IMG/VR virus record: IMGVR_UViG_3300035515_000418
DNA length: 20,000 bases
Strand: one strand, 5' to 3'
Source of the DNA: an uncultured virus (IMG/VR IMGVR_UViG_3300035515_000418)
Taxonomy: Duplodnaviria > Heunggongvirae > Uroviricota > Caudoviricetes
The translations under genes were made by a program, and so were the position numbers. This document shows, in pieces, positions 9,215-19,639 of the stretch (position 1 is its first letter; each line of letters begins with the position of its first letter). The notes under the pieces were generated by a model that saw nothing but the letters and a program-made list of their open reading frames with translations, searched no databases and was not told the DNA's origin.

Positions 9215-9247
9215 AGAATTTTTGTCCAATAGGTTGACAAAAATTCT
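9215..9247. repeat. perfect 12-bp inverted repeat overlapping a -35 box
   Basis: AGAATTTTTGTC (9215-9226), 9-nt spacer, GACAAAAATTCT (9236-9247). Confidence 0.85.
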
Positions 9248-9262
9248 GGAATGTGTTAGAAT
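9234..9262 (+). promoter_or_regulatory. sigma-A promoter
   Basis: TTGACA (9234-9239), 17 nt, TGn-TAGAAT (9257-9262). Confidence 0.75.
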
Positions 9263-9295
9263 AGATTTAGAAATTAAGGAAGGAAAGTTGATGAA

Positions 9296-9406
9296 ATGGA
9301 TACAGTAGTAATAAATTGTAATACATTTGAATATAGCACATATAAAGAAGGTTCATCTTTTAGAAAAGAAGATGAGCTCGTTTTTGTGCAATTAAATAAA
9401 GTGTGA
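9296..9406 (+). CDS. 36-aa small protein (MDTVVINCNTFEYSTYKEGSSFRKEDELVFVQLNKV)
   Basis: Lies between the 9234 promoter with an AAGGAAGG RBS-like tract and the 9448 terminator; below the ORF-track cutoff. Confidence 0.5.
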   Translation: MDTVVINCNTFEYSTYKEGSSFRKEDELVFVQLNKV

Positions 9407-9447
9407 TACAATGAACTATTAAACTAAAATCAACTAATATTATAAGA

Positions 9448-9487
9448 GGCTGATAAGAATAATTTAGTTCTTGTCAGCTTTTATTTT
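9448..9487 (+). terminator. intrinsic terminator
   Basis: GGCTGATAAGAA / TTCTTGTCAGCT stem followed by TTTATTTT. Confidence 0.75.
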
Positions 9488-9665: not shown

Positions 9666-9694
9666 TTGACGAATAGTAAGAAATATGTTATAAT
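9666..9694 (+). promoter_or_regulatory. sigma-A promoter of the tRNA cluster
   Basis: TTGACG (9666-9671), 17 nt, TGn-TATAAT (9689-9694); A/T tracts upstream (UP-like). Confidence 0.85.
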
Positions 9695-9730
9695 ATATTT
9701 AAAGTTAATAAAAAGAGGAAAATACATTAG

Positions 9731-9803
9731 GTGTCATTAGCTCAGATGGTAGAGCACTTGACTTTTAATCAAGGCGTCGAGGGTTCAAGTCCCTCATGAC
9801 ACA
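9731..9803 (+). tRNA. tRNA-Lys(UUU)
   Basis: Acceptor GTGTCAT/ATGACAC, D-stem GCTC/GAGC, anticodon arm CTTGA-CTTTTAA-TCAAG, T-arm GAGGG-TTCAAGT-CCCTC; no encoded CCA. Confidence 0.96.
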
Positions 9804-9819
9804 CTAGGTAGTTTAATAT

Positions 9820-9890
9820 CACTCCTTAGTCTAATGAATAAGACACCACCCTTTCAGTAGAAGTGCTGGGTTCAATTCCCGCAGGAGTGG
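9820..9890 (+). pseudogene. degenerate tRNA-Glu(UUC)
   Basis: Acceptor CACTCCT/AGGAGTG and D-stem GTCT/AGAC are intact and CTTTCA is present. The 3' anticodon stem no longer pairs with CCACC, the D-loop GG is lost, and the T-stem is bulged. Confidence 0.75.
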
Positions 9891-9893
9891 CTA

Positions 9894-9971
9894 TGATACT
9901 GGTATACAAACAGCAATTACACTTATTATGAAACTTTTAACTTCTGAATAATTAAGTATACTGTAGTATCA
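9894..9971 (+). ncRNA. unnamed structured RNA, copy 1 (bulged terminal helix + ACAGCAA + Lys-type anticodon loop CUUUUAA)
   Basis: TGATACT-GGTATAC pairs with GTATACT-[GT bulge]-AGTATCA; internal hairpin TTATT..GAA-A-CTTTTAA-C-TTC..AATAA; homologous to 10111-10198. Confidence 0.7.
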
Positions 9972-10038
9972 AAAATAATCAAATAAGAAAGGAAGTAATC
10001 ATATGGAATCAGACTTTAAGCCACGATTTAAGAACAAA

Positions 10039-10111
10039 GGCATGTAAGCTAACTCGGTAGAAGCGACGGATTGAAGCTCCGTAGGAATTGGTTCGACACC
10101 AATACATGCCA
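10039..10111 (+). tRNA. tRNA-Phe(GAA), non-canonical (A8, G37)
   Basis: Acceptor GGCATGT/ACATGCC, anticodon arm ACGGA-TTGAAGC-TCCGT, T-arm ATTGG-TTCGACA-CCAAT; no CCA. Confidence 0.9.
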
Positions 10112-10198
10112 TTAACACTGGTATACAAACAGCAACATTTAAAATAATGAATTAGTCTGATAAACTAAAAATCATAACAGTATACTGTAGTGATTAAT
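10111..10198 (+). ncRNA. unnamed structured RNA, copy 2 (bulged terminal helix + ACAGCAA + Ile-type anticodon arm CUGAUAA)
   Basis: ATTAA-CACT-GGTATAC pairs with GTATACT-[GT bulge]-AGTG-A-TTAAT; internal perfect 5-bp stem/7-nt loop TTAGT-CTGATAA-ACTAA. Confidence 0.72.
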
Positions 10199-10261
10199 AA
10201 TGAAAATAAAGTAATTGGTCTAATTATAAGGCTTGGTTACGAAAGGAAAGTGAAATTTTTT

Positions 10262-10672
10262 ATGAAATATTTGACAGGTGTTTTTGCACTGAACATTGAA
10301 GATAATCTTGAGACATGTGGTGACTGGCATACCAGTGCATTAGATTGGAATAAGATTAAACTAGTAGAAAGTGATGACAGTATATTTAAAGATTATGGCA
10401 TTGAGTCAAATAAGAGTATACCAGAGCATGATGAGCTATACAATGTAGCAAATACACTTAGAGCTGTATTAGATTTAATGGTAAATAAGCAAACACGGTA
10501 TTTGAAAGGGTTCAGAAATGATTTCTTTTGTACAGACAAATATAATGATGAGTTCTTTTCAAAAGTAATTCAGCTAAGAAATTTGGATAATTGGGAAGAA
10601 ATAAATCATTTAATGAAATATGAGTTCTTTTTCAAATGGGATGATTACATTAAGGAGTATGATTCAAAATGA
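10262..10672 (+). CDS. putative antitoxin/partner of the AbiEii-type nucleotidyltransferase
   Basis: AAAGGA RBS-like tract before ATG 10262 (MKYLTGVFALN...TCGDWH). Its stop overlaps the toxin start (ATGA), the usual type IV TA layout. The antitoxin role is inferred from position. Confidence 0.65.
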   Translation: MKYLTGVFALNIEDNLETCGDWHTSALDWNKIKLVESDDSIFKDYGIESNKSIPEHDELYNVANTLRAVLDLMVNKQTRYLKGFRNDFFCTDKYNDEFFSKVIQLRNLDNWEEINHLMKYEFFFKWDDYIKEYDSK

Positions 10673-11303
10673 CTGAATGGAGAATAATGCATGGTGAAAT
10701 AATAAAGAATTTTCTGTTATGGTTAAATCAGCATAGTAGCAAATTTGTATTAAAAGGTGGTACATCTTGATGATGTGTTACGGATTGACACGATTTTCAG
10801 AGGACATATATTTAGATGGATTTGACAAATCATCTTTCTCTAAAATAATAGATACTTTTGTAAATGTTTTTCACAAAAGTATTCTGAAATAACTTACAGA
10901 AAGGTCAAAGATACAGATACTGTAAAAAGAGCCTTCATTCATTAGGGGGGGTGAAAAACCTCTAAAGATAGAAGTCTCTTATAGAAAAAGAGAGCTAAAT
11001 CCAGCAGAGTGTTGCATGATGAAAGGAATATTAGTCTATAGCATAAACGAAATATTTTTAATGAAATTAAATGCTTTCAGTGGTAGAGATAAAATAAGAG
11101 ACTTATATGATGTAAAGTTTATATATTTGCATTATAAGCAAAATTTGAATCCACAGTCTATATCAGTTTTAAGAAATGCTCTAGCTTATAAGGGTGTGGA
11201 ACAATTTGATTACTTAGTAAAAAATCAACATGATGAATTGACAGATAATGAACAACTTTCTGAAAATTTCTTAACAATGTATTTTGATATAGGGCTATGT
11301 TAG
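10669..11303 (+). pseudogene. AbiEii/AbiGii (DUF1814) nucleotidyltransferase toxin pseudogene
   Basis: Reassembles across frames to MTEWR...FVLKGGTS / LMMCYGLTRFSEDIYLDG... / ...KDTDTVKRAFIH* / EKPLKIEVSYR...MKLNAFSGRDKIRDLYD. Frameshifts at ~10767, ~10870 and ~10945-10951 (G7), plus TAG at 10943. Confidence 0.88.
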
Positions 11304-11319
11304 ACAAGATAGTGATAAA

Positions 11320-11400
11320 GGGTGGATAGGTAAGTGGTTAAAACGGGCAGACTGTAAATCTGTTGCTTCGGCTTCGTTGGTTCGAATCCAACTCCACCCA
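11320..11400 (+). tRNA. tRNA-Tyr(GUA)
   Basis: Acceptor GGGTGGA/TCCACCC, anticodon arm GCAGA-CTGTAAA-TCTGT, long variable arm GC-TTCG-GC, T-arm GTTGG-TTCGAAT-CCAAC; no CCA. Confidence 0.95.
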
Positions 11401-12609: not shown

Positions 12610-12695
12610 TACAATATCTATGATAAGAAAGGCAGTTGATTAATTTATGAAAAATATTATACAATATATAATAACATCTAATTAGTATTTAGATT

Positions 12696-12786
12696 GCAGT
12701 GGTAATGTCTAATTGGTAAGACGGCGGATTGCTAATCCGAGGAATCCAGCCAGACTGGTGTGCAGGTTCAAGTCCTGTCCACTGCG
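12696..12786 (+). tRNA. tRNA-Ser(GCU)
   Basis: Acceptor GCAGTGG/CCACTGC with G73, anticodon CGGA-TTGCTAA-TCCG, long variable arm CCAG/CTGG, T-arm GCAGG-TTCAAGT-CCTGT; two extra nt before the D-stem; no CCA. Confidence 0.88.
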
Positions 12787-12818
12787 TTACAATAAAAATG
12801 AAAGGAAGGCATAGAGCA

Positions 12819-13158: not shown

Positions 13159-13470
13159 ATGGGCATTGATAGTTTGATGAAAATCATTAATAAATCAAAT
13201 AGTAACAATTTCAAGGTAGTAAATATAAGAAAGCCACATAAATGTGGTCACTGTGGAAAACAACTAACAGTTGGAACAGAGTGTATAACAGTGAATAAAA
13301 AGTCATTACCTAGAAAGTGGTATTGTAAAGATTGTGTGGAATTACAATTAGAAATAATTGATGCACAGTGCAGATTAAACAATACAGTATTTAATGATGA
13401 AGGTGGAGCACTGGCAAATATGCAATACCTTGATGAACTGGAATCAGACTTTATAAGTAAACAAAGATAA
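13159..13470 (+). CDS. small zinc-finger protein
   Basis: RKPHKCGHC...WYCKDC, two CxxC pairs; AAAGGA RBS. Confidence 0.72.
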   Translation: MGIDSLMKIINKSNSNNFKVVNIRKPHKCGHCGKQLTVGTECITVNKKSLPRKWYCKDCVELQLEIIDAQCRLNNTVFNDEGGALANMQYLDELESDFISKQR

Positions 13471-13906: not shown

Positions 13907-13980
13907 GGAGTTGGTAGCTCAATTGGCAGAGCAATGGATTGTGGTTCCATAGGTTGTGAGTTCGAGGCTCATCCAACTCC
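13907..13980 (+). tRNA. tRNA-His(GUG)
   Basis: Encoded G-1:C73, acceptor GAGTTGG/CCAACTC, anticodon arm ATGGA-TTGTGGT-TCCAT, T-arm GTGAG-TTCGAGG-CTCAT; no CCA. Confidence 0.95.
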
Positions 13981-14007
13981 CTAATAAATCAAAGGAGGCA
14001 TATAGAA

Positions 14008-14953: not shown

Positions 14954-14975
14954 ATTGAAAGGTAGGAAATTTAAA

Positions 14976-15527
14976 ATGACTAGCAGTAAAAATAGAGGAA
15001 AATATTTAAGCTATTTGTTAAGGCATCATCCAGAGGAAGTTGGGTGTACATTAGATGAATATGGTTGGTGTGACGTAAATACACTGATTAGTAATTCAGA
15101 CTTTACAATTGGTGAGCTAGAAACTCTTGTATCAGAAGGTACACGATATGAATTATCAAATGACAAATCAAAAATAAGGTCATTTCATGGGCACTCAGTA
15201 CCAGGCATTATATATCAAGATGAATTAACAGAGTCAATTCCATTATATCATGGTACATCAAGAGATACATTGGAAGAAATAAAGAGAGTTGGTGCAATAT
15301 TACCAATGTCACGAGTGCAGGTACATTTATCAAAAGATATGAACAAGGCAAAAGAGGTGGGAGGCAGACATGGAAGTCCAGTGATAATAGTAATAGATAC
15401 AGAAAAAATGTTGAAAGACAATCTAAAGATATATAGTTCAGGTGATGGTGTTTATTTGACAGATTCAGTTCCAGTAGAATACTTTAAAGAAATATTAAAT
15501 AAACACTTTGAAACAGAAATAAATTAG
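14976..15527 (+). CDS. kptA: RNA:NAD 2'-phosphotransferase (KptA/Tpt1)
   Basis: LSYLLRHHP, LDEYGW, TRYEL, KIRSFHGHS, LYHGTS, LPMSRVQVHLS, VGGRHG and VYLTDSVP motifs; the R-H-R-R catalytic set appears intact. Confidence 0.93.
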   Translation: MTSSKNRGKYLSYLLRHHPEEVGCTLDEYGWCDVNTLISNSDFTIGELETLVSEGTRYELSNDKSKIRSFHGHSVPGIIYQDELTESIPLYHGTSRDTLEEIKRVGAILPMSRVQVHLSKDMNKAKEVGGRHGSPVIIVIDTEKMLKDNLKIYSSGDGVYLTDSVPVEYFKEILNKHFETEIN

Positions 15528-15546
15528 AAAAAAGAGGAAAATAATC

Positions 15547-15963
15547 ATGGAAGAGGCATTAAGAAATTTAATCAAGCAGTCAATGTTAGCAAAGGACAAG
15601 AGTAAAAACACACTATACAAGAATATTCTTGAAAGTGCTCAGAAATCAGCCAAAGAGAAAAGGCAAGAATTAAGTGATACTTATATAATTTTAGCAGTTA
15701 AGAAAGAAATAAAGCAGATGCAGGATTTATTAAGTTATTGCAAAGAAGGAACAGACAGATACACTGAAACTTCTGAAAATATCAAGCTTGCAAGTGAATT
15801 ATTACCAAGGGCAGTAGATAATGATACAGTAAGGAAATTCTTAGTAGAGGAAAATTTAGATAAGAACATGGGTGTTTGTATGAAAGCTCTTAAGACTAAA
15901 TTTGATGACACACTTGATAGTAAATCAGCTAGTCAAATAGTAAAAGATTACATTTCAAAGTAA
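15547..15963 (+). CDS. GatB/YqeY domain protein
   Basis: IKQSMLAKDK...VKKEIKQMQD...ELLP...KNMGVCMKALK...DSKSASQIVK, the typical YqeY pattern. Confidence 0.85.
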   Translation: MEEALRNLIKQSMLAKDKSKNTLYKNILESAQKSAKEKRQELSDTYIILAVKKEIKQMQDLLSYCKEGTDRYTETSENIKLASELLPRAVDNDTVRKFLVEENLDKNMGVCMKALKTKFDDTLDSKSASQIVKDYISK

Positions 15964-18742: not shown

Positions 18743-19639
18743 ATGCTAATAACAAATTACACCCTATTGGATAATCCAAACAGTTATAAAGATGACATAT
18801 TCAATGGAACACTAGATTTAACAAAGTCTGAATGGGTTTTATCCAAGGATACACCTGGAACAGCAGGAATGTTCCTAAAGAGCAGACTAGAGGTTAATAA
18901 CAATCAGTGGTTTTTAAAATTGTCAGCTTATAATTCAGAGGACAAAGTTTATGGGTATGAATCAATATTTGAACTAGTAGCTAGTAGAGTAGCAGAAGCA
19001 CTTCACATTAAACACTTACACTATTACTTAATACCTGTACTGGTCAGGATAGATAATGCAGAATTTGAAACAGTAATATCAGCTTCAAAAGATTATAGAT
19101 TAAGGAATGACGTAAGAGTAAGCTTTGAGTCATTTTACAATATGTATAATACAGCTAACCAAAATCCAAGTGACTTTGTGTTTAATTGGTTAACTAGAAT
19201 ATCTTCAATGAACGAGTATATAGACCATGAGCAATTATCAACTTATATGAGACAAATGATATTATTTGATTACATTATATTTAATAGAGACAGACATGGG
19301 AACAATATAGAGTTACTATATAACATAGATAAAGAGGCTTATAAAATAGTACCACTCTTTGACCAAGGTTGTTGTCTAACAGCTCCATTATATGATGATT
19401 ACTCACAAGTAACCACAAAGTACATGCTAAATTCTTCACCAGTTAATAATTTCATAGGGTGTAGGGATTTGGAACAAAATCTAGTTACATTTTGTAAAGG
19501 AAAGTTACATTTACAAAAATTGAGTAATTATAATTTTACATGCGGGTTGGATAAGTATATGTCATCAAACAAGTTAGAAATAATAAATAAGATGATAGAA
19601 TTAAGGTGGAATCATGCAGTTGATATACTAGATCAATGA
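18743..19639 (+). CDS. HipA-like Ser/Thr kinase (catalytic domain only)
   Basis: GTAGMFLK, FLKLS, ESIFELVASRVA, FDYIIFNRDRHGNN (catalytic loop) and PLFDQG (metal-binding). Confidence 0.87.
   Translation: MLITNYTLLDNPNSYKDDIFNGTLDLTKSEWVLSKDTPGTAGMFLKSRLEVNNNQWFLKLSAYNSEDKVYGYESIFELVASRVAEALHIKHLHYYLIPVLVRIDNAEFETVISASKDYRLRNDVRVSFESFYNMYNTANQNPSDFVFNWLTRISSMNEYIDHEQLSTYMRQMILFDYIIFNRDRHGNNIELLYNIDKEAYKIVPLFDQGCCLTAPLYDDYSQVTTKYMLNSSPVNNFIGCRDLEQNLVTFCKGKLHLQKLSNYNFTCGLDKYMSSNKLEIINKMIELRWNHAVDILDQ

Follow-up and report, generated by a model that had tools for sequence, protein, structure and literature searches.

In a phage tRNA operon within the stretch of DNA analysed here (20,000 nucleotides, hereafter the window), two segments, E1 and E2, are tentatively interpreted as paralogous copies of one structured RNA module of about 78-86 nt. 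Both are located directly 3′ of tRNA genes and on the tRNA strand, and the source resembles a gut phage. Our preferred, still provisional reading is that of a lineage-restricted structured RNA, which is freed by tRNA 3′ processing and probably binds a protein. The arrangement initially predicted, i.e., a pair of homologous non-tRNA RNA structures on the tRNA strand whose bulged terminal helix is constant and whose middle varies, is recovered, and no tRNA is called within 9891-9975 or 10112-10200 by ARAGORN or by Rfam (RF00005, E ≤ 10). The two copies with their constituent parts and surroundings are as follows.

9666..9694, + strand: sigma-70-like promoter (TTGACG, 17 nt, TG-TATAAT), 11 of 12 hexamer matches, extended -10
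9731..9803, + strand: tRNA-Lys(UUU), first gene of the operon, 72.2 bits (Rfam)
9820..9890, + strand: aberrant tRNA-like gene in which acceptor, D and T arms are present and the anticodon stem is unpaired; Rfam tRNA 31.1 bits with mismatched anticodon-stem pairs flagged, missed by ARAGORN
9894-9971, + strand: E1, copy 1, candidate element based on repeats, folding and variation in relatives; 95.1 bits with the covariance model built from both copies
9894-9900 with 9965-9971, + strand: outer helix of E1
9901-9907 with 9956-9962, + strand: inner helix of E1, GGTATAC/GTATACT
9908-9916, + strand: conserved AAACAGCAA of E1
9923-9927 with 9947-9951, + strand: basal stem of E1
9930-9932 with 9942-9944, + strand: apical stem of E1
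9933-9941, + strand: loop region of E1, containing CTTTTAA at 9934-9940
9963-9964, + strand: GU bulge of E1 (GT in DNA)
9972..10038, + strand: fast-evolving spacer from E1 to tRNA-Phe, differing from the relative in run X3 by no fewer than 15 substitutions and 14 indel letters
10039..10111, + strand: tRNA-Phe(GAA), no encoded CCA, 54.6 bits (Rfam)
10112-10197, + strand: E2, copy 2, candidate element based on repeats and folding; 106.6 bits with the covariance model built from both copies
10112-10119 with 10189-10197, + strand: outer helix of E2, A10193 bulged
10120-10126 with 10180-10186, + strand: inner helix of E2, GGTATAC/GTATACT
10127-10135, + strand: conserved AAACAGCAA of E2
10147-10150 with 10172-10175, + strand: basal stem of E2
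10152-10156 with 10164-10168, + strand: apical stem of E2, perfect 5 bp
10157-10163, + strand: loop of E2, CTGATAA
10187-10188, + strand: GU bulge of E2 (GT in DNA)
10262..10672, + strand: first gene downstream of E2, conserved protein without Pfam match, 96 homologues

Judging by its sequence, the promoter at 9666..9694 would drive the tRNA operon containing both E1 and E2, and two terminator-like hairpins (9350-9378 and 9445-9482) close the unit upstream of it. Six tRNAs are detected in the window by Rfam and five by ARAGORN; all six are without encoded CCA and have T-rich trailers behind. Since tRNA-Tyr, tRNA-Ser and tRNA-His of the window are not accompanied by such an element, it does not represent a general part of tRNA expression. 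The spacer separating E1 from tRNA-Phe bears a 14-codon remnant ORF (ATG at 10004) resembling the 3′ end of ORF 13159-13470, as well as the repeat D2 (9980-10018 versus 13415-13453, 72%), and the gene 10262..10672 overlaps (ATGA) a decayed AbiEii-like gene. Regarding the neighbours that had been proposed for inspection, a KptA/Tpt1 gene is present at 14955-15527, and neither TROVE nor RtcB appeared among the 26 window ORFs scanned. The DUF5131 protein of the window has relatives in IMG/VR at 29-47% only.

As originally reported, the 19-mer ACTGGTATACAAACAGCAA is found twice in the window (9898-9916 and 10117-10135) and so is the 13-mer AGTATACTGTAGT (9955-9967 and 10179-10191). Allowing for up to three mismatches, the 18-mer core gives two matches in the window against a shuffle expectation of 0.01, and none of 200 shuffles reaches two. 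In agreement with the distance claimed before, a gap of 0-3 nt separates the start of each copy from the discriminator of the tRNA that ends a tRNA run: the E1 helix begins at 9894, 3 nt past discriminator G9890 of the tRNA-like gene, and the E2 helix at 10112, 0 nt past discriminator A10111 of tRNA-Phe. Both copies are placed where tRNA 3′ processing would free them.

The predicted fold of E1 and E2 is a rod composed of a terminal helix of 14-15 bp with a conserved GU bulge, followed by an upper hairpin. The internal loop is large and asymmetric, its 5′ strand being the conserved single-stranded AAACAGCAA(C), while the upper hairpin is two-step, with helices of 8-10 bp broken by internal loops, and is tipped by a 7-nt loop with the consensus CUGAUAA. 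The GGTATAC/GTATACT helix and the GT bulge are present in both copies, as described at the outset. The outer helix, as read from the sequence, is unlike between E1 and E2 with pairing kept, and this part of the earlier description is substantiated by compensated pairs: T9897-A9968 of E1 corresponds to C10116-G10192 of E2, G9895-C9970 to A10114-T10195, and two of the four variable outer-helix pairs have both sides changed. Apical stems are likewise dissimilar (GAA/TTC in E1, GAAA/TTTC in E1 of the relatives and TTAGT/ACTAA in E2), with the 7-nt loop aligned. The helices therefore appear to covary over a small set of sequences, comprising the two copies and one or two relatives. G9901·T9962 is a wobble pair in E1, and the only module change listed in a relative, A9906>G, converts A-U into G·U; as these combinations pair only in + strand RNA, they point to RNA of this strand as the folded entity. 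Thermodynamic support for the whole-element folds appears modest, given z = -1.91 for E1 (8 of 200 shuffles at least as good) and z = -1.26 for E2 (27 of 200); in the minimum-free-energy fold of E2, the long-range helix gives way to a local 3′ hairpin, and the middle regions alone are not more stable than shuffles, 40 and 44 of 200 folding at least as well. Apart from the nested helices, the sequence suggests, without covariation, a possible pseudoknot between ACAG (9910-9913) and CUGU (9961-9964).

Diverged relatives of the element were found in contigs from two metatranscriptome libraries belonging to different studies (runs X3 and X4). Their conserved modules are near-identical to those of the window and the adjacent spacer is heavily altered; maintenance of the modules against the changing spacer argues for selection. 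Between the window and the X3 relative, substitutions affect 1 of 41 module positions versus 15 of 67 spacer positions (Fisher p = 0.004), this contrast falling to p = 0.12 if the unlisted substitutions, which number at most three for X3 and at most one for X4, were all in modules. In the middle of the element, 8 of 37 positions are substituted in the same comparison. Compared with each other, the X3 and X4 relatives are identical over 9921-9971, whereas 20 of 67 spacer positions are unlike (p = 3e-6). A relative also has about 75 nt of unlike sequence inserted between tRNA-Phe and the 5′ part of E2; this insert is flanked by TTAAC on both sides, and its start is tRNA-like by eye. The loops available from the relatives are those of E1 only, parts such as 10154-10216 being without cover, and the share of the sampled words of the stretch in sequencing runs was 0.11 at the largest, no run reaching half. 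Presence of the relatives in metatranscriptome contigs gives a weak hint that the element is expressed, weak because DNA can occur in such libraries; no transcript ends are visible in these contigs, which do not report strand, start or end.

The search for known families and distant homologues delineated a narrow distribution. Rfam (segments 9700-10300, 9891-9975 and 10110-10200, E ≤ 10) gave no family for the element and no match to either copy, which upholds its supposed position outside named RNA families; among the models that returned no match at this threshold are those of hammerhead, hatchet, pistol, twister, twister-sister and hairpin ribozymes, for each of which Rfam 15 presumably holds a model. 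The scan of IMG/VR with a 14-mer yielded 119 loci, 0 of them with the 3′ partner, two-module patterns produced either 0 loci or 4 chance loci, the latter in coding DNA, and a gapped pattern independent of the helix (AAACAGCAA, CTGATAA, TGTAGT) gave 9 chance loci. Metagenome contigs contained 0 matches, blastn against 50,697 GenBank phage records had its best E = 3, and the two-copy covariance model, run over the window and 17 related loci (together 197 kb), revealed no third copy. In a class-level draw from GTDB with 5 named genomes added, 4 of 406 matched the 19-mer with 1 mismatch, all unrelated, and a genome (G299) carries a 252-bp tandem repeat with an 18/19 match, without the 3′ module and without a tRNA; the two-module pattern was found in 0 of 401 genomes of a family-level draw. 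None of the retrieved loci encoding homologues of the 10262-10672 protein in MAGs and metagenomes has the element. As known so far, the element is therefore lineage-restricted, one narrow lineage carrying it in the data searched, 807 GTDB genomes included. Two other candidate identities were tried. A small peptide can be translated from an in-frame ATG through LVYKQQ in both copies; it was rejected given that a relative has Y>C, H>Y and a lost stop and that the 3′ module is left unexplained. T-box, K-turn, attC and Cas12a-repeat-like elements were discarded on account of defining motifs absent by eye and no Rfam match.

The best look-alike in Rfam is Class I RNA (RF01414), with 18.1 bits for E1 and 14.8 bits for E2 against a gathering score of 41.5, neither score being significant after testing 4227 families. 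Class I RNAs are reported as unique to dictyostelid amoebae; their 5′ and 3′ ends are joined by a short stem starting with G (Kjellin et al. 2021, PMC7919456), as is the case for E1 and E2. The likeness extends to a conserved single-stranded motif next to the 5′ stem strand, with ACAGCAA common to both, to the variable remainder, to CUGU behind the 3′ stem strand and to a core of about 60-68 nt; in the RF01414 alignment, 8 of 11 positions of the motif consensus are matched by the element. E1 and E2 differ from Class I in the extra outer helix, the bulge and the conserved apical loop. Coincidence or convergence is the most likely origin of this likeness.

For the provisionally favoured protein-binding RNA, the following route may be envisaged. 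RNase Z would cut the precursor at the discriminator of the CCA-less tRNA and thereby generate the element's 5′ terminus; pairing between its two ends would shield the RNA against exonuclease attack, so that a small stable RNA of discrete size would result, and together with the apical loop and the single-stranded AAACAGCAA the invariant bulged helix may then constitute a recognition surface for a putative phage or host protein, via which the RNA would act. Non-tRNA stable RNAs are familiar from phage T4, where species 1 and 2 (rnaC, rnaD; ~120-140 nt) reside in the tRNA cluster and are co-processed with it. They share with E1 and E2 the position among phage tRNA genes, the T4 RNAs being longer. 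The release by RNase Z would follow the same logic as in murine gammaherpesvirus 68 (MHV68), whose tRNA-miRNA-encoded RNAs (TMERs) consist of a viral tRNA-like gene and then hairpins cut free by tRNase Z (PMC4838037), so that the proposed 5′-end route for E1 and E2 is drawn by analogy from a hairpin immediately behind a viral tRNA-like gene. TMERs are otherwise dissimilar, belonging to a eukaryotic virus, being transcribed by Pol III and serving as Dicer substrates that give miRNAs, none of which holds for bacteria.

Among the competing explanations, one implies a cis-acting processing or stability signal, that is an RNase III-type site or a 5′ protective hairpin parting the tRNA transcript from the rest and devoid of own function once cut; we regard it as unlikely, albeit deserving serious attention. 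RNase III sites of phages T7 and SP82 comprise about two helix turns broken by an internal loop, and the shape of the modelled rod, with 14-15 bp lower and 8-10 bp upper helices and internal loops between, may recall them. The predicted RNase Z cut also lies 0-3 nt away from the start of the helix, where a 5′ stabiliser must sit, and plain hairpins are seen at +1/+2 behind several tRNAs in related large contigs. However, the rule "tRNA then hairpin" is not significantly enriched in these contigs (4 of 18 tRNA ends versus 10.5% of background windows), E1 is followed only by the decaying spacer and by another tRNA, which needs no protection, and three tRNAs standing directly before real ORFs are without the element. 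Moreover, a generic hairpin needs no sequence-conserved 9-nt single-stranded motif, bulge or apical loop.

Another interpretation, which we find distinctly improbable, assumes an apical hairpin that passes for the anticodon arm of a tRNA of the ANN-reading kind (Ile GAU; Lys UUU in one copy) and titrates or senses an anticodon-loop nuclease or modification enzyme. The original prediction attributed an anticodon-like 7-nt loop to each copy, and the loop sequences as well as the 5-bp stem of E2 stand, CTTTTAA of E1 (9934-9940) being the same as the anticodon loop of tRNA-Lys (9762-9768); the stem of E1 is weaker than claimed. The E1 loop is closed in the window by only 3 bp and an A·C mismatch, for which reason the fold predicts a 9-nt loop. 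In the relatives from runs X3 and X4, 9936 T>G and 9937 T>A turn the E1 loop into CTGATAA, and 9941 C>T creates a loop-closing pair extending the stem to 4 bp. Hence CTGATAA accounts for three of the four loops seen (E2 of the window, E1 of both relatives) and CTTTTAA for one, and the Lys-like version amounts to two substitutions in one copy, with the closing pair also lost. Neither a different anticodon per copy nor a swappable anticodon, both of which had been proposed from the window, is supported by this comparison, in which loop positions 3-5 do not cycle through real anticodons: E1 of the relatives has the same Ile-type loop as E2, and the Lys type is a variant of one copy. At 5 of its 8 middle differences (9917, 9936, 9937, 9952, 9953), the window E1 departs from the state common to E2 and to E1 of the relatives. 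Under the favoured protein-binding reading, its Lys-like loop would most simply be drift in the less constrained copy. A single Ile-type anticodon-loop mimic is a possible description of the consensus.

This consensus fits Y-U-NNN-R-A on a stem of 4-5 bp and is the same in E2 and in E1 of the relatives despite unlike stems; a comparable 5-bp hairpin with such a loop is found in only 1.7% of the 40-nt windows of this sequence, and genes of tRNA-related conflict abound in the window (five tRNAs, KptA/Tpt1, the AbiEii-like remnant and a HipA-like kinase). Against imitation stand the sameness of three of the four loops, the lost closing pair of the Lys-type copy, the stability of the middle hairpins not exceeding that of shuffles and the 9 occurrences of CTGATAA on the + strand in 20 kb. 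In addition, an anticodon decoy leaves unexplained why conservation is strongest in AAACAGCAA and the terminal helix, and a full-text literature search returned, among the matches listed, none on such phage decoys. The thrS operator of E. coli does offer a non-tRNA hairpin that a tRNA-binding protein recognises and whose 7-nt loop is anticodon-like, but this operator is an mRNA leader by which its own synthetase gene is controlled, whereas E1 and E2 lie in a tRNA trailer, without a synthetase gene here. Bacterial Y RNAs, some of which are phage-encoded, combine a bulged terminal helix with a tRNA-like module that, in the known members, mimics the acceptor, T and D part and not the anticodon arm. 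E1 and E2 resemble the YrlA type, bound by Ro/Rsr, in the bulged terminal helix and the candidate mimic of a tRNA part; their suggested designation as Y-like RNAs is disfavoured by no Y RNA match in Rfam (E ≤ 10) and no TROVE among the 26 window ORFs scanned. The composite model, in which a phage small RNA excised by host tRNA-processing enzymes displays an Ile GAU-type mimic in most copies and Lys UUU here, has a conserved protein-binding scaffold and baits or senses a nuclease or modification enzyme directed at anticodon loops, is rated slightly lower still than imitation as such.

The niche of the element is shared by theta ribozymes, HDV-like RNAs of gut phages with the cleavage site within 5 nt of phage tRNAs (Kienbeck et al. 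2024, PMC10879173). Both are small structured RNAs directly 3′ of phage tRNAs on the same strand, theta ribozymes being proposed there to shape the tRNA 3′ end (PMC10879173), and the distances of 3 nt and 0 nt place the 5′ ends of E1 and E2 within the ~5 nt given for theta. A new self-cleaving ribozyme class, cutting at or near its own 5′ end to form the tRNA 3′ end, is nevertheless very unlikely. Invariant nucleotides do cluster in the bulge and the internal loop, and the ACAG/CUGU pairing mentioned above, a sequence reading without covariation, would supply a candidate pseudoknot. However, neither a nested double pseudoknot nor a J4/2 cytosine arrangement can be drawn for E1 and E2, their helices being nested and not knotted as in theta ribozymes; neither HDV-type nor any other ribozyme family of Rfam matches at E ≤ 10, and a descriptor of the HDV-like double pseudoknot has 0 solutions per copy, although a solution is obtained for 26 of 300 and 9 of 300 shuffles. 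The unequal discriminator-to-helix distance (3 nt vs 0 nt) and the sufficiency of RNase Z for CCA-less tRNAs argue in the same direction.

The least probable candidate, a selfish or recombinational DNA element (either a MITE- or REP-like palindrome at tRNA 3′ ends or direct repeats mediating gain and loss of tRNA cassettes), accommodates the inverted-repeat ends with GTAG inside, the two direct copies on either side of the tRNA-Phe cassette and the ~75-nt extra stretch of the relative bounded by TTAAC at the E2 junction, but it is at variance with compensatory pairing past the conserved sequence, which a transposon end does not need, with G·U pairs, which a DNA hairpin formed by the other strand would contain as mismatches, with modules staying in place while flanks decay, with no target-site duplications or flanking direct repeats, with 2 copies only in 20 kb and none in IMG/VR, metagenome contigs, GenBank phages and 807 GTDB genomes, and, as far as REP is concerned, with GTAG on the 3′ side instead of 5′ of the hairpin and an outer helix that covaries and is not identical.

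Phage tRNA clusters are now viewed as counter-measures against host defences targeting tRNAs. If the improbable anticodon-arm bait were true, it would represent an RNA-based counter-defence alongside phage tRNAs and the KptA/Tpt1 repair enzyme. Theta ribozymes are, to our knowledge, the only well-described RNA partners of phage tRNAs, and the element described here would be a second RNA behind them, structurally unlike theta ribozymes, showing clear signs of selection and belonging to no database family. Conversion of tRNA processing to the production of non-tRNA RNAs is so far known to us from a herpesvirus and is hinted at by the stable RNAs of T4; if E1 and E2 do give a stable small RNA with a protein partner, as we tentatively prefer to think, bacterial viruses would also use tRNA processing for this purpose.

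The 19-mer and 13-mer repeats from which a pair of homologous RNAs had been proposed each occur twice, exactly at the predicted places, and none of 200 shuffled sequences contained two matches to the 18-mer core. They belong to two paralogous hairpin-shaped elements, E1 and E2, lying directly 3' of tRNA genes in an AT-rich window (31% G+C), whose plus strand holds nearly all long ORFs. The five tRNA genes listed without comment are those called by both ARAGORN and Rfam.

Features of the window
9731-9803, tRNA-Lys
9820-9890, weak, sixth tRNA-like gene (Rfam only, 31.1 bits; no ARAGORN call)
9894-9971, plus strand, E1; helix starts three bases after the discriminator of the 9820-9890 gene
10039-10111, tRNA-Phe
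10112-10197, plus strand, E2; helix starts at the base right after the tRNA-Phe discriminator
10262-10672, gene of 136 aa after E2; no Pfam match, 96 homologues, mostly in gut Clostridia assemblies
11320-11400, tRNA-Tyr
12695-12787, tRNA-Ser
13908-13981, tRNA-His
14955-15527, KptA/Tpt1 RNA 2'-phosphotransferase (Pfam E = 1.7e-33)

The gene preceding E1 has good acceptor, D and T arms, while its positions 27-31 and 39-43 are unpairable, leaving no paired anticodon stem around a loop region that reads like CU-UUC-AG; relatives in the public sequencing runs X1 and X2 have changes at 9841, 9846-9848 and 9861.

Each element forms a rod. At its base, a GU bulge in the 3' strand separates an outer helix (7-8 bp) from an inner one in which GGUAUAC pairs with GUAUACU, one G·U pair included. 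Above lies an asymmetric internal loop with the invariant AAACAGCAA as its 5' strand, then a basal stem (4-5 bp); a second, small internal loop divides this from the apical stem, which carries a 7-nt loop. Folding energies provide moderate support (E1, z = -1.91, with 8/200 shuffles folding as well; E2, z = -1.26, with 27/200), the minimum-free-energy fold of E2 favours a local hairpin, and the middles folded alone do no better than shuffles. Comparative evidence is the stronger: as had been anticipated, the two outer helices have different sequences and both remain paired, 2 of the 4 variable pairs beyond the conserved ACU/AGU being changed on both sides, and the apical stems, GAA/UUC in E1 versus UUAGU/ACUAA in E2, flank loops aligned by MAFFT. 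The G·U pair of the inner helix, like the G·U that replaces an A-U pair in a relative (9906 A>G), forms in plus-strand RNA only, the other-strand counterparts being C·A mismatches; this favours a tRNA-strand RNA over a double-stranded DNA site.

No further copies came to light in IMG/VR, metagenome contigs, GenBank phages, 807 GTDB genomes or related loci, whether by exact-pattern scans, by blastn or with a covariance model. An 18/19 match to the 5' module in a 252-bp tandem repeat of a Clostridia-class genome (GTDB G299, contig 2, about 124.6 and 136.4-136.9 kb; loci L189 and L193-L195) has neither the 3' module nor a nearby tRNA, so it was judged unrelated. Matching runs in a public sequencing-run index contain small shares of the window only, and four of them (X1-X4) were compared in detail; the element is known from one narrow lineage and few sequences. 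In the RNA library X3, a 351-nt contig spans 9862-10116, from which it differs by 27 substitutions and 14 indel letters, and in X4, an RNA library from another study, a 245-nt contig spans 9921-10116. Changes listed for E1 in the relatives are 9906 A>G, 9917 T>C, 9920 C>T, 9929 T>A, 9936 T>G, 9937 T>A, 9941 C>T, 9952 T>A and 9953 T>C.

Divergence of the window from the X3 relative
9894-9916 and 9954-9971, conserved modules of E1, 41 nt: 1 substitution, wobble-compatible
Middle of E1, 37 nt: 8 substitutions
9972-10038, spacer, 67 nt: 15 listed substitutions and all 14 indel letters

The contrast between modules and spacer has a Fisher p of 0.004, becoming p = 0.12 if the 3 unlisted substitutions were all in the modules. 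Over 9921-9971 the X3 and X4 relatives do not differ, yet 20 of the 67 positions of their spacers do (p = 3e-6, or 0.005 in the worst case). E1 is thus under purifying selection in place.

A promoter with an extended -10 element at 9666-9694 is preceded by two terminator-like hairpins just upstream, so tRNA-Lys, the odd tRNA, E1, tRNA-Phe, E2 and the downstream genes are probably one transcription unit. A second strong promoter (9234-9262; 11/12 hexamer matches, extended -10) lies about 100-220 nt 5' of these two hairpins (9350-9378 and 9445-9482), with no sizeable plus-strand ORF between, and 9234-9482 may represent a short non-coding transcript. Beyond 10116, the X3 contig has 75 nt without likeness to the window, after which it is identical to 10112-10134. 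This insert between tRNA-Phe and E2 is flanked by TTAAC on either side (10112-10116 in the window), a hint that recombination at the 5-nt repeat has added or removed a tRNA cassette; its first 30 letters resemble by eye the 5' part of a tRNA, and if it is one, E2 would follow a different tRNA there, still ending a tRNA run. A 39-nt repeat (9980-10018 versus 13415-13453, 72% identity) and a 14-codon ORF after E1 (start 10004), whose first residues are common to the C-terminal end of ORF 13159-13470, were also seen; the small ORF looks like a gene remnant from rearrangement around tRNA cassettes.

Pfam matches in the window include several phage-typical or conflict-related genes (DUF5131, AAA ATPase, KptA/Tpt1, YqeY, AbiEii fragment and HipA-like kinase). 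Genes for KptA/Tpt1, a YqeY-like protein and the HipA-like kinase (14955-15963 and 18743-19639) are interspersed with tRNA genes as a cluster of tRNA- or RNA-repair-related or toxin-like functions. The 10262-10672 gene overlaps (ATGA) a decayed AbiEii-like nucleotidyltransferase gene, whose frame runs from 10669 to a frameshift near 10765-10770; two in-frame stops follow, and the part 3' of them (11016-11303) is intact; the pair 10262-11303 looks like a phage-kept partner gene beside a dead toxin gene. Large metagenome contigs encoding the 10262-10672 protein (59-66% identity) carry dispersed tRNAs and, in two of them, a tmRNA, from which we infer that the window belongs to a large phage infecting Clostridia-like hosts in the gut. 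ARAGORN places tmRNA genes at 6523-6887 of contig L144 and 6984-7310 of L175, both large and phage-like, and a tRNA whose anticodon has four bases (attt) at L144 3595-3684.

With position, strand, fold, covariation and constraint established, the reading that we tentatively favour, at somewhat under an even chance, is a small, stable RNA that has a protein as its partner. RNase Z, cutting after the discriminator of CCA-less tRNAs, would generate the 5' end; the paired ends would shield a discrete RNA of ~65-86 nt; a protein may recognise the surface made up of the loop, the invariant bulge and AAACAGCAA. The nearest phage parallel is found in the unexplained stable RNAs of T4. In herpesvirus TMERs, tRNase Z can release hairpins behind viral tRNA-like genes (PMC4838037).

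A cis-acting processing or stability signal within the tRNA transcript is considered unlikely; hairpin enrichment after tRNAs in related contigs is not significant in a 45-nt test (4/18 versus 10.5% background). Several tRNAs of L143, L144 and L175 are followed by hairpins at +1 to +4 (L144 2926-2947 and 3685-3704; L175 1135-1157; L143 7661-7742 and 7886-7913), two of those in L144 containing GCAGTAGC, and a very stable 80-nt rod (z = -3.84) lies 3' of tRNA-Met in L143.

The original prediction saw a different, swappable anticodon in each copy, and this did not hold. In the relatives, two substitutions convert the E1 loop from CTTTTAA to CTGATAA, the loop of E2, so that 3 of the 4 loops seen are alike, and 9941 C>T adds a closing A-U pair, giving a 4-bp apical stem. 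The same loop in paralogues with differing stems indicates that the apical hairpin is a real, conserved feature. At 5 of the 8 middle differences (9917, 9936, 9937, 9952 and 9953) E1 of the relatives matches E2 and the E1 of this window is the outlier. Sequence comparison thus explains the Lys-like loop best by change within a single copy, from which the closing pair has gone as well, and the loop is no sign of a designed anticodon set. Mimicry of one anticodon arm, of Ile GAU type, is possible. Of the 40-nt windows of this sequence, 1.7% contain a Y-T-NNN-R-A loop on a 5-bp stem and 7.4% the relaxed, E1-type form, CTGATAA appearing 9 times on the plus strand; as an account of the elements the anticodon-arm mimic is regarded as doubtful.

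A new ribozyme is a good deal less probable: the double-pseudoknot descriptor for HDV-like and theta ribozymes gave 0 solutions in E1 or E2 (shuffles, 26/300 and 9/300), and no ribozyme, Y RNA or T-box was found at E <= 10 by Rfam in 9700-10300 or in each copy alone. The Rfam search advised at the outset likewise returned no family for either copy at this threshold, neither was called as a tRNA by ARAGORN or Rfam, and a small coding gene was rejected, the in-frame peptide not being kept in the relative. The best Rfam match of both is Class I RNA of Dictyostelium, at 18.1 and 14.8 bits against a gathering threshold of 41.5 and not significant after 4227 families tested. Class I RNAs are reported from dictyostelids only. 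Going by the Rfam alignment and the family description in PMC7919456, they resemble E1 and E2 in architecture: a short end-joining stem starting with G, a conserved single-stranded motif right after its 5' strand (ACAGCAA common, 8/11 consensus positions matching), a variable remainder and CUGU after the 3' strand. We treat the likeness as coincidence or convergence; ACAG and CUGU are complementary in both and could point to a small tertiary motif common to the two. A selfish or recombination element acting as DNA has the slightest chance of the five readings, a mobile palindrome being probably excluded by lack of target duplications, covarying flanks and conservation in place, and some other explanation takes the remaining probability.

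Structured RNAs on tRNA transcripts are already a known kind; what is new in E1 and E2 is an element matching no described family that occupies the same niche as theta ribozymes with a different fold.
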